The notes under the pieces: generated by a model
The model's database searches: none
What the model was told of the DNA's origin: nothing
The model's input: the letters and a program-made list of their open reading frames with translations, nothing else
Shown: in pieces, positions 18,096 to 20,508 of the stretch
Numbering within the stretch: position 1 is the stretch's first letter
Layout of the letters: each line of letters starts with the position of its first letter
Translations under genes and position numbers: made by a program
Source: Promethearchaeota archaeon
GTDB taxonomy: Archaea; Asgardarchaeota; Lokiarchaeia; Sigyniarchaeales; SOKP01
DNA: 32,000 nucleotides
Reading direction: 5' to 3'
NCBI GenBank assembly: GCA_030606485.1
Contig: JAUWGH010000008.1
Location: 90,001 to 122,000 of the forward strand

Positions 18096-20150
18096 ATGCT
18101 GGATGATGTTAAGATGATTACAAACAAAAGAATGATTAAGCATAAAATAATTGGTTTAACATTTATTTTTAGTGTTATTTTGTCTTCCTTTATTATTTTA
18201 AAATGTATTGATTTAAACAATAATTGTACCCGATATAATTCTACAAAGATTCTGACTTCTAATTCTAATAATTTTAACATATTGACATTTTGGGATCAAG
18301 AAATTGAACGCGTAAATAATACTTTATCAAATATTGAACTAGGAGAAAATTCTACTTTAAAATATACTAATCCTAATACAAAAGAAGAATATGATTTTAT
18401 TGTTCAAGAAATTCACTTTGATTCTCCAAATTGGGTCGATGCTACTCCCACAATTATAAAACTGCATGGATATCTTCTATACCCAGAAGAATTAAAAAAT
18501 AAAAATCCTGGATGTTTATGTATGCACGGTTTGGGTGGTAATGCTAACAAGTCTTTTGAGTTTGCTGCGCCTTATTTAGAAAATGGTTTTATGGTTTTAT
18601 GCCATTCTCATCCTGGGCATGGAAAATCCGAAGGGACAAACCCTACGCCAAATAATTTTTATTATGAAGGAGAATATAACAAATCATCACATCATTATTT
18701 GACTCTTTGCGGGGCTATTCAAGGGTTAAGAGTCTTGGAAAGTCTTAATCTTGTTAACAACTCAGAAATTATGGTTACTGGAAGTTCATATGGTGGATTA
18801 AATACCATGTATTTATCTGGTGTTTGTGGAGAGAGAATTGCGGGGGCAATACCATATATTGCTGTAGGTGATTATGAAAAGAATAATGAAGATCCTACGA
18901 AGCTTTTATTTTGGGTATGGAATAAAAATATTAATGAAATCCCTGATTCTTATTGGAATGAACAAAATCTAAGAACCGATCCAATATATTATTTAGCATC
19001 AGATAAGGTACCGCCAATTTTTTGGGAATTTGGCACTACAGATGAATTTTTTTATCATCATTGTATTATTAATACCTACGAAAAGGTTAATCATACTGAT
19101 AAATATCTTCAAATTCATCCTAATGGACACCATGGATTATTTGATTATGAAAATACGACAAAATTTTTTATTGATTATATTATTAGTAAGGGTTCAGCTC
19201 CTCCTAAAATTGATATTAAGGATCACATAAAAGGAAACAATATATTGGGTGATTATTTAGAAATTGAAGTGCATGTAGATTCGGATGTAAATATAGAATC
19301 AGTTCAAGTTGTATATAAATATCTTGATATTATAGGAACTTGTTGGGAAAAAGTTAATCTTGAAGAATCTGAAGAAGATATTTGGATAGGTATTTTAAAT
19401 CCAGGAGTTATTACATCAGATGTTGATTATTATATAATTGTTAATTTAGAAGGCGAAAATAATGTATGGTTCAGTTCGAAAATTTATACTGTAGGAAAAC
19501 TTATTAGTAATTTAACTATTCCATTTTATATTTTATTCATTGTTTTCATATCTTTTCCAGCAATTTTGTTAATTTGGAGGAGATATAAAAAAAATGTTAA
19601 AGAATTAGAGGAAAAATTTCAACGTGGAGCTAAAAAAAATTTAATCTTAGAAGTTTCTTTTTTGGGAATAACCGAAATGCTTTTTTTTATATCATTAATT
19701 TTACCAATAGCAGAATTTGGAAACAGTGGAGTATCATGGTCTTCAATATTTGTCTTTAACAAGTTATATACTTGGAAAGCGGTTTTTGGAAGTATGGCTC
19801 CATTTTTAACATCCATATTCCTTATTATATTTATATTATTTTTCCATATAAGCCTAATGAAACCAATAATTGCAGGTTTTTTCAAAATTGCTTATTTTTT
19901 ATACGCATTACTATTATATTCTGTCATTTCAGGTGTTATAGGGGGCTCGTCTGAGTTGGATAATTTTGGAATAATTAATTTAGGAATAGGCTTTTATTTA
20001 ATATTAATCGTGGCATTGATGTATATTAGTATAGGCGTTTGGAAACGATATTATCAAATAAATTTTAGAATAAGAGAACCTAAAAGGAAATTTTATAATA
20101 TTGACAGATGGTTTAGATTAAAAAGCTCAAGTAAGAAAAGGACTGATTAA
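18096..20150 (+). CDS. Surface-exposed alpha/beta-hydrolase (serine esterase/peptidase-like) with C-terminal multi-pass membrane domain
   Basis: 684 aa. N-terminal hydrophobic segment, MHGLGG, GSSYGG nucleophile elbow, GTTDEFF (Asp), PNGHHG (His), then about 5 TM segments. The start may be one of the downstream ATGs. Confidence 0.75.
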   Translation: MLDDVKMITNKRMIKHKIIGLTFIFSVILSSFIILKCIDLNNNCTRYNSTKILTSNSNNFNILTFWDQEIERVNNTLSNIELGENSTLKYTNPNTKEEYDFIVQEIHFDSPNWVDATPTIIKLHGYLLYPEELKNKNPGCLCMHGLGGNANKSFEFAAPYLENGFMVLCHSHPGHGKSEGTNPTPNNFYYEGEYNKSSHHYLTLCGAIQGLRVLESLNLVNNSEIMVTGSSYGGLNTMYLSGVCGERIAGAIPYIAVGDYEKNNEDPTKLLFWVWNKNINEIPDSYWNEQNLRTDPIYYLASDKVPPIFWEFGTTDEFFYHHCIINTYEKVNHTDKYLQIHPNGHHGLFDYENTTKFFIDYIISKGSAPPKIDIKDHIKGNNILGDYLEIEVHVDSDVNIESVQVVYKYLDIIGTCWEKVNLEESEEDIWIGILNPGVITSDVDYYIIVNLEGENNVWFSSKIYTVGKLISNLTIPFYILFIVFISFPAILLIWRRYKKNVKELEEKFQRGAKKNLILEVSFLGITEMLFFISLILPIAEFGNSGVSWSSIFVFNKLYTWKAVFGSMAPFLTSIFLIIFILFFHISLMKPIIAGFFKIAYFLYALLLYSVISGVIGGSSELDNFGIINLGIGFYLILIVALMYISIGVWKRYYQINFRIREPKRKFYNIDRWFRLKSSSKKRTD

Positions 20151-20299
20151 ATTTCTTTGAAGTGTAAAAAAAAAATTTAATTTCAATATTATCAGACAAG
20201 AACTACGAGAAAAGAGACTGCTTATAAATATAGATTAAGGTAAATTTGAAAAAATGTTATGGGTTTTTATTTTTTATAGTTCATTAGTGAGTAGATCGG

Positions 20300-20370
20300 T
20301 GGGATCAGACCGTCCGTCGTAAATCATCCATTAGATAGATGTCATTAACTTGTTAAGTCATCATTTCCCA
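20300..20370 (-). ncRNA. Box C/D 2'-O-methylation guide sRNA
   Basis: Minus strand reads UGGGA-A-AUGAUGA (box C)-CUUAACAAGUUA (12 nt)-AUGA (D')-CAU-CUAUCUA-AUG-G-AUGAUUU (C')-ACGACGGACGGU (12 nt)-CUGA (box D)-UCCCA. It has a 5-bp terminal stem, two canonical k-turns and two 12-nt spacers. A possible TATA (TTTAAATA) lies at 20396-20389. Confidence 0.87.
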
Positions 20371-20508
20371 AATTTATATTGAATTTGATATTTAAAAAAA
20401 ATATGTGAAAAGTAGAATAATTATAAAATATTTTTTAATATAGAATTATTTAAGTAATTATTCTAAAACAGATAATAATTATATAAAAAAAATATAGTGT
20501 GAAGAAAA

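Follow-up and report, generated by a model that had tools for sequence, protein, structure and literature searches.

A box C/D sRNA with a conserved A opposite C1402 of the 16S rRNA decoding site in a genus of Promethearchaeia

Nucleotide C1402 of the small-subunit rRNA touches the codon in the P site, and the methyl group on its ribose belongs to the very few rRNA modifications common to bacteria, archaea and eukaryotes. In a stretch of 32,000 nucleotides from a Promethearchaeia (Loki-type Asgard) archaeon, here referred to as the window, an initial annotation had pointed to a box C/D sRNA whose D guide fits the universal decoding-site motif except at the very position where methylation would be directed. 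It proposed that the 16S rRNA of the organism carries an unusual U1402 together with G1408, or else that the mismatch is real and the guide serves as a chaperone. Does the guide really predict a non-canonical base, and if it does not, what might a guide with an A opposite C1402 do?

As read from the sequence, the locus holds a complete dual-guide box C/D sRNA of about 71 nt (Table 1). The initial annotation was right in this respect, since the boxes, a 5-bp terminal stem and conservation in the genus were all found. The one-nucleotide offset of the stem gives the correct k-turn register. The compensated C'/D' pair claimed earlier is also there, for U5 of box C' can pair with A1 of box D', which replaces the G-C of the consensus. 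D'/C' retains the sheared GA/AG and U·U positions and a k-loop or k-turn is possible, without covariation within the genus. Both guide spacers are exactly 12 nt in the genome from which the window comes (G000) and in its congener G002. Across the four genomes of the genus the D guide keeps its 12 nt, but the D' spacer is shorter (10–11 nt) in G001 and G003. The guide stands out as a GC-rich island within AT-rich DNA. The A/T-rich run upstream of the sRNA may be a TATA-like element, for which a genome of 29% GC makes such a run poorly discriminating, and G001 has a comparable run at equal distance upstream.

Table 1. Parts of the box C/D sRNA and its upstream element, in window coordinates.
Feature	Position	Strand	Basis and remarks
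Whole box C/D sRNA	20300..20370	-	sequence reading, sub-threshold C/D family matches, orthologues in G001–G003
5' half of terminal stem, UGGGA	20366..20370	-	pairs with 20300–20304; invariant in four genomes
Bulged A, extra k-turn nucleotide	20365	-	sequence reading
Box C, AUGAUGA	20358..20364	-	fits canonical RUGAUGA; invariant in orthologues
D' guide, CUUAACAAGUUA, 12 nt	20346..20357	-	N+5 = 20350; pairs 12/12 with own 23S
Box D', AUGA, variant of CUGA	20342..20345	-	identical in all orthologues
D'–C' spacer, 14 nt	20328..20341	-	8 nt in G001 and G003
Box C', AUGAUUU, degenerate	20321..20327	-	AUGAUUC in G001
D guide, ACGACGGACGGU, 12 nt	20309..20320	-	N+5 A = 20313; pairs with 16S 1398–1408
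Box D, CUGA	20305..20308	-	invariant in orthologues
3' half of terminal stem, UCCCA	20300..20304	-	pairs with 5' half
A/T-rich TATA-like element, UUUAAAUA	20389..20396	-	about 20–27 nt upstream of 5' stem

No Rfam family reached its gathering score on the sRNA; SNORD41 came closest, with 25.8 bits where 41 are needed. With the threshold relaxed, 16 of 16 matches were to C/D-box families and ran end to end over 20300–20370 on the minus strand. Curated Rfam C/D families are guide-specific, so a missing match at gathering level is no argument against membership in the C/D class. In this class at least one guide is expected to pair over about 9 bp or more with rRNA or tRNA around N+5; here D' pairs 12/12 with 23S, with a Watson-Crick pair at N+5, and D pairs over 4 + 6 bp with 16S, with a break at N+5. 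It is very improbable that we are looking at a chance constellation of motifs in AT-rich intergenic DNA with no RNA gene behind it. Scanning by boxes does give many spurious candidates (a box and stem census of G000 is not discriminating, as it gave 62 candidates compared with 17 once the genome was reversed, and the guide scores were distributed much alike in the two), and the lack of a gathering-level Rfam match would also fit. Against chance, however, the boxes are canonical, the spacers measure exactly 12 nt, the stem keeps k-turn register and the guide forms a GC-rich island; the conservation in four genomes, at a different location in G001, and the uniform class of the sub-threshold Rfam matches point the same way. 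On sequence grounds we conclude that window 20300–20370 is a genuine archaeal box C/D guide RNA.

The sRNA sits in a 358-nt gap between two plus-strand genes, which encode an alpha/beta hydrolase and a 4Fe-4S protein, and a GAPDH gene lies further along; all three are unrelated to ribosome biogenesis. G000 (3.75 Mb, 29% GC, 13 contigs) encodes an adjacent Nop5–fibrillarin gene pair and also L7Ae. DNA of the sRNA locus occurs in cold-seep and marine-sediment metagenomes. The 16S gene of this genome is split over two contig ends (C2:450044-451002 and C6:1-405), with about 130 nt missing. The 23S gene lies at C6:71617-74798, about 71 kb from the 3' end of the 16S gene, so the rRNA genes are unlinked. 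After the 16S gene comes an intron-containing tRNA (C6:536-675; tRNA-Lys UUU according to aragorn), and the same program gave many tRNA genes with introns, some at non-canonical positions, as well as a predicted tRNA-SeC at C2:189902-190018. A second dual-guide C/D sRNA was read on the minus strand of C2:444906-444965, which lies beyond the window and some 5 kb upstream of the 16S gene. Its boxes are fully canonical (AUGAUGA, CUGA, GUGAUGA, CUGA), its D' guide has 9 contiguous Watson-Crick pairs to 23S at about own position 2168, and its D guide has a match to 16S at about own position 573.

Three of four congeneric Promethearchaeia genomes have an orthologue of the sRNA, namely G001, G002 and G003. 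The genus sample consists of four genomes, two of which carry identical sRNAs (G000 and G002). Boxes C and D, the stem and positions 1–11 of the D guide, including A5, are invariant across the four, while the D' guide, the spacer, the flanks and the synteny diverge. In G001 the flanks have strongly diverged and neither neighbour gene is nearby, that is, the sRNA stands in a different genomic context. Strain variants from three independent metagenome studies show many differences in the flanks and none in 20297–20463, a stretch that takes in the sRNA. Between positions 20150 and 20520, the co-occurring strains of runs X6 and X10 differ at about 7 positions in 20243–20296 and about 9 in 20464–20492, and are identical over 20298–20463. 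The two strains of run X6 collapse there to one unitig with a depth of about the sum of both strain depths.

The base at 1402 was read directly from the 16S genes. With the numbering fixed by alignment to E. coli rrsH, the 3' part of the G000 16S gene reads ACACACCGCCCGUCGCUCC, with C at 1402 and G at 1408, where E. coli has A. C1402 and G1408 were likewise found in the 16S of G001, G002 and G003. The G1408 forecast by the initial annotation was therefore correct, and its U1402 was not. A U1402 in the gene is thereby refuted, and it is next to impossible that C-to-U editing of the RNA supplies one after all and makes the guide a perfect Um1402 guide. To our knowledge, no C-to-U editing of rRNA has been described in archaea. 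The guide would then be a perfect 11-mer, and G1408 had been foreseen correctly; but the single 16S gene of G000, together with those of G001–G003, encodes C1402, and C is also found in 47 of 47 Micrarchaeota 16S and in the 16S of Pyrobaculum and Thermoproteus (PMC4644070). Apparent ACCGUCCGUC sites in G376 and in the Micrarchaeota genome G400 proved not to be rRNA and were discarded as chance matches.

With C at 1402, the D guide pairs with 16S 1398–1408 at 10 of 11 positions (4 + 6 Watson-Crick pairs, position 12 unpaired), and an A·C mismatch falls exactly at N+5. The guide itself is complementary to ACCGUCCGUCG, and N+5 is its sole internal disagreement with the universal ACCGCCCGUC, so that the geometry is as initially described. 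The register is exact as well, C1402 being opposite the fifth nucleotide from box D. The D-guide/16S duplex came to -16.6 versus -23.8 kcal/mol; the mismatch costs about 7 kcal/mol and the duplex is still stable. An acetylation-type guide (snR4/snR45-like) was considered and dropped, as the ac4C motif, which is CCG in archaea, would point to C1404 and not to C1402.

Among all rRNA and tRNA of G000, 16S 1398–1408 is the best target of the D guide. We found no perfect target in 23S, in tRNA or elsewhere in G000–G003, where the perfect 10-mer ACCGTCCGTC occurs only as the antisense of the sRNA gene itself. The 16S of G001 is complete and has no perfect site, which covers the approximately 130 nt absent from the G000 16S assembly. 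The initial annotation had stated that C1402 together with a better perfect target in 23S or tRNA would speak against it; the former was found and the latter was not. In the shuffle controls, 81 of 2000 shuffled D guides (p about 0.04) and 48 of 2000 shuffled D' guides (p about 0.024) matched rRNA or tRNA equally well. Each guide-target match taken alone is thus only modestly significant; it is conservation that lifts the sRNA well above chance.

The partner guide behaves differently within the genus. In G000 the D' guide pairs at 12 of 12 positions (10 Watson-Crick and 2 G·U) with 23S 555–566 in own numbering, its N+5 facing U559 in a Watson-Crick pair, with a duplex energy of -7.0 kcal/mol. 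In G000 and G002 the D' guide has gained this match separately and may direct 2'-O-methylation of 23S U559. The target lies immediately 3' of E. coli 23S position ~521, in a region that varies between lineages, and it is also present in G001 and G003, whose D' guides do not match it. These are short unrelated replacements with no rRNA complementarity above chance. A partner guide aimed at a nearby site of the same rRNA was accordingly not found in any of the four, the D' guide pointing to 23S in G000 and G002 and to nothing above chance in G001 and G003. Within the genus only the D guide is conserved as a specificity element, a sign that the mismatched guide matters by itself.

In all four genomes the base opposite C1402 is A, and the G that would make a Watson-Crick pair is absent. 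According to Lui et al. 2018, methylation cannot do without a Watson-Crick pair at N+5 (PMC6009581); for the in vivo and in vitro basis of this rule the same paper cites Appel & Maxwell 2007 and Cavaille et al. 1996. As N+5 has no Watson-Crick pair, we did not class the sRNA as a guide that methylates C1402, and from the A together with the reported rule, binding without methylation would be expected. We therefore favour, with somewhat better than even confidence, the reading that the D guide binds the decoding-site strand without methylating it, as a placeholder or chaperone. This was the second option of the initial annotation, in which the A·C mismatch is observed and the chaperone role is probable.

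We think it rather unlikely that the guide has C1402 methylated in spite of the A·C, say by way of a protonated A+·C wobble, near-isosteric with G·U. Several observations would suit such an activity. Cm1402 is the one SSU ribose methylation common to E. coli, P. abyssi, yeast, plants and human (PMC11542601), and in G000 we detected no RsmI homologue and no second C/D guide in register for C1402. In three phyla full complementarity is preserved over the remainder of the guide, and the N+5 base of the real sRNAs among the matches listed is only G or A, never C or U. On the other side stands the need for a Watson-Crick pair at N+5, reported as essential in vivo and in vitro by a paper that cites the primary work for it (PMC6009581). 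Cm1402 is, moreover, not universal in archaea, since H. marismortui is without a 16S entry in the table of PMC11542601. Finally, G to A is the commonest mutational route, and a constant A says little when there are three lineages.

Binding without methylation is the role already proposed for guides of this kind. Four Pyrobaculum families with a conserved N+5 mismatch have been described, including sR25 at 16S C1368, and Lui et al. took such mismatches to mean that the interaction is useful while the modification is unneeded or harmful (PMC6009581). Dennis et al. 2015 counted one N+5-mismatched guide in 16 of 262 dual guides (PMC4644070). According to the supplement of that paper, the D guide of P. 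calidifontis sR25 is ACGACGGACGGA and that of T. tenax sR135 is GCGACGGACGGG, both directly before CUGA, and in its alignment the 16S of Pyrobaculum and Thermoproteus reads CCGCCCGUCG, i.e. C at 1402 (PMC4644070). Like the window sRNA, sR25 and sR135 have the core CGACGGACGG at box D, C1402 at N+5, A at that position and an unchanged C in the 16S. The D guide of PCAsR25 equals the window D guide at 11 of 12 positions, and sR25 is conserved across species as the window sRNA is across its genus. The features that define the sR25 type, namely extended pairing, a conserved non-Watson-Crick N+5 and an unchanged target, were all found in the window sRNA. Hence the mismatched C1402 guide design is already known from Pyrobaculum, and what is new is its occurrence in an Asgard genus.

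The two are not alike in every respect. The hosts of sR25 are hyperthermophiles of another phylum, and their sRNAs have another C' box and spacer, whereas the window host is a cold-sediment organism. In the Thermoproteales the D' guide aims at nearby 16S (around E. coli 1360), so that the mismatched guide there may be seen as assisting a methylation close by. In the window's genus the D' guide is aimed at 23S or is empty, and this helper rationale does not apply, which counts somewhat against the binding-only reading. What the window sRNA shares with Thermoproteales sR25 is only the target-dictated guide and generic boxes; as the target dictates the guide sequence, this likeness speaks neither for nor against common descent.

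A second comparison is offered by a Micrarchaeota family (L052, L129, L157, L173, L175 and L176), which has CGACGGACGG followed by box D, A at N+5 and C1402 in the 16S, as in the genome of the window. Apart from belonging to a different phylum, it differs in its D' guide, UAGAGGUGAUC, which is complementary to the 16S 3' end (target GAUCACCUC, with a C near E. coli 1533 at N+5), and in a GC-rich hairpin inserted between D' and C'. In a sample of 61 genomes of the Micrarchaeota order, all 47 with an assembled 3' part of the 16S have C1402. The guide was found in 4 of the 61, always with A, and 3 of these 4 have C1402 in their own 16S; the guide-bearing MAGs of Micrarchaeota and Hermodarchaeota mostly have no assembled 3' 16S.

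Perfect guides for the same site also exist. Sulfolobus Sac-sR122, Ignicoccus IHOsR11 and Methanopyrus MKAsR114 have G at N+5 (PMC4644070). These and the copies found here address the same target strand in the same register as the window guide, and with their G they are predicted to methylate, whereas the window guide has A. In the three named sRNAs the guide lies in the D' slot and has a G·U at 1405; in the window it occupies the D slot. For an overview we scanned one genome per prokaryotic species with a descriptor (C'-like TGA, 4 nt, CGACGG[A/G]CGG, 1 nt, CTGA). Among the archaeal matches listed that have full C/D architecture, A at N+5 occurs in at least 4 Pyrobaculum, at least 2 Thermoproteus and at least 1 Thermoproteales genome, in at least 3 Micrarchaeota and in two congeners of the window's genome, and G in at least 2 Bathyarchaeota and at least 1 each of Hermodarchaeota, Thermoproteota and Nitrososphaerota. 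Every real sRNA of this register among them has G or A at N+5. About 100 bacterial matches among those listed had no C box and were set aside as chance. The A variant, with the other ten guide positions intact, is accordingly seen in three phyla, represented by Thermoproteales, Micrarchaeota and one Promethearchaeia genus.

When any base was allowed at guide position 1, the scan of 400 Asgard genomes gave perfect G guides in three genomes of Hermodarchaeota and in one from another family, and the A variant only in the window's genus. L055 and L178–L180 (Hermodarchaeota) and L177 (G067, other Asgard family) are proper C/D sRNAs with CGACGGGCGGA-CUGA. Asgard archaea thus do carry predicted Cm1402 guides, though patchily. 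A relaxed scan of the window's family (135 genomes) yielded no further sRNAs, the other 130 genomes being without the guide. The additional matches of this relaxed scan lay in coding DNA for the GxSMGG motif of alpha/beta hydrolases and were rejected as false. In L192 and L197–L200 (family f1), the nucleophile elbow Ser-Met-Gly-Gly is encoded as CGATGGGCGGnATGA, which looks like a C1402 guide followed by a D'-like box and can mislead pattern searches.

The narrow distribution bears on whether the D guide once directed Cm1402, lost this function by a G-to-A change and is now decaying, any function residing in the D' guide or having been lost. Confinement to one genus among 400 Asgard genomes would suit decay, as would the remodelling of the D' guide within the genus and the modest significance of the single guides. 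A neutral guide, however, should gather further changes, and in G001 positions 1–11 are identical despite diverged flanks and context. There the D' guide is targetless, so that conserved specificity resides in the mismatched D guide alone, and a guide intact but for the A persists also in Pyrobaculum/Thermoproteus and Micrarchaeota. Decay is in our view improbable.

The favoured reading, binding without methylation, can be spelled out as follows. The sRNA would be transcribed independently in this archaeon, would fold into C/D and C'/D' k-turn motifs and would form an RNP with L7Ae, Nop5 and fibrillarin. The D guide would anneal to the 5' strand at the top of helix 44 in nascent 16S rRNA (1398–1408, the decoding and P site). 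C1402 would then be presented to the fibrillarin active site opposite A, and catalysis would be expected to fail. The function would lie in a transient hold on the decoding-site strand during assembly, the role that has been proposed for the Pyrobaculum sR25 guide. The observations on which this draws are the architecture and its conservation, the mismatch between A and C1402, the lack of a perfect target in the genomes of the genus and the reappearance of the A variant elsewhere among archaea. We would further suggest, tentatively and with low confidence, that A opposite C1402 is a selected design, serving either methylation through A+·C or a stand-alone non-catalytic class of guides for 30S assembly. 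In favour of this are its retention in three phyla with the other ten guide positions intact, the lone conservation of the D guide's specificity in this genus, and the failure to find RsmI or another guide for C1402 in G000.

How does the sRNA relate to the eukaryotic guides for this site, of which the initial annotation had made it the Asgard counterpart? E. coli Cm1402 corresponds to P. abyssi Cm1369, yeast Cm1639, human Cm1703 and plant Cm1645, and the plant U43 guide covers the C1402-equivalent site, Arabidopsis Cm1645 (PMC11542601). The eukaryotic box C/D RNAs snR70 and SNORD43 are likewise directed at the equivalent of C1402, but they methylate it. We take snR70 to be the guide of yeast Cm1639 and SNORD43/U43 that of human Cm1703. 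In bacteria m4Cm1402 is made by RsmI and RsmH, which are stand-alone protein enzymes; they act on the same nucleotide as the window guide addresses, with protein only, and G000 has no detectable RsmI homologue. Beyond generic C/D features, the window sRNA has no sequence or Rfam similarity to snR70 or SNORD43. Being restricted to a genus among the 400 Asgard genomes scanned, it is an analogue of these RNAs with no demonstrable orthology. Since C1402 guides are widespread in archaea, with perfect ones in other Asgards, the proposed counterpart survives only as a functional analogy; genus restriction, the N+5 without a Watson-Crick pair and the lack of Rfam similarity tell against more.

For the comparison of Asgard archaea with eukaryotes, these results mean that Asgard C1402 guides exist but are patchy and not evidently orthologous to snR70/SNORD43. 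They also correct a tempting over-reading, as the guide sequence does not predict an unusual rRNA base. If methylation through A·C were true, the rule of a Watson-Crick pair at N+5 would not be absolute; if a non-catalytic class were true, the lineages concerned would have given up the otherwise pan-domain Cm1402 mark. Guides of this kind, kept by some archaea including now an Asgard genus, are a natural test case for binding-only roles of C/D RNPs and for the strictness of the Watson-Crick rule at N+5.
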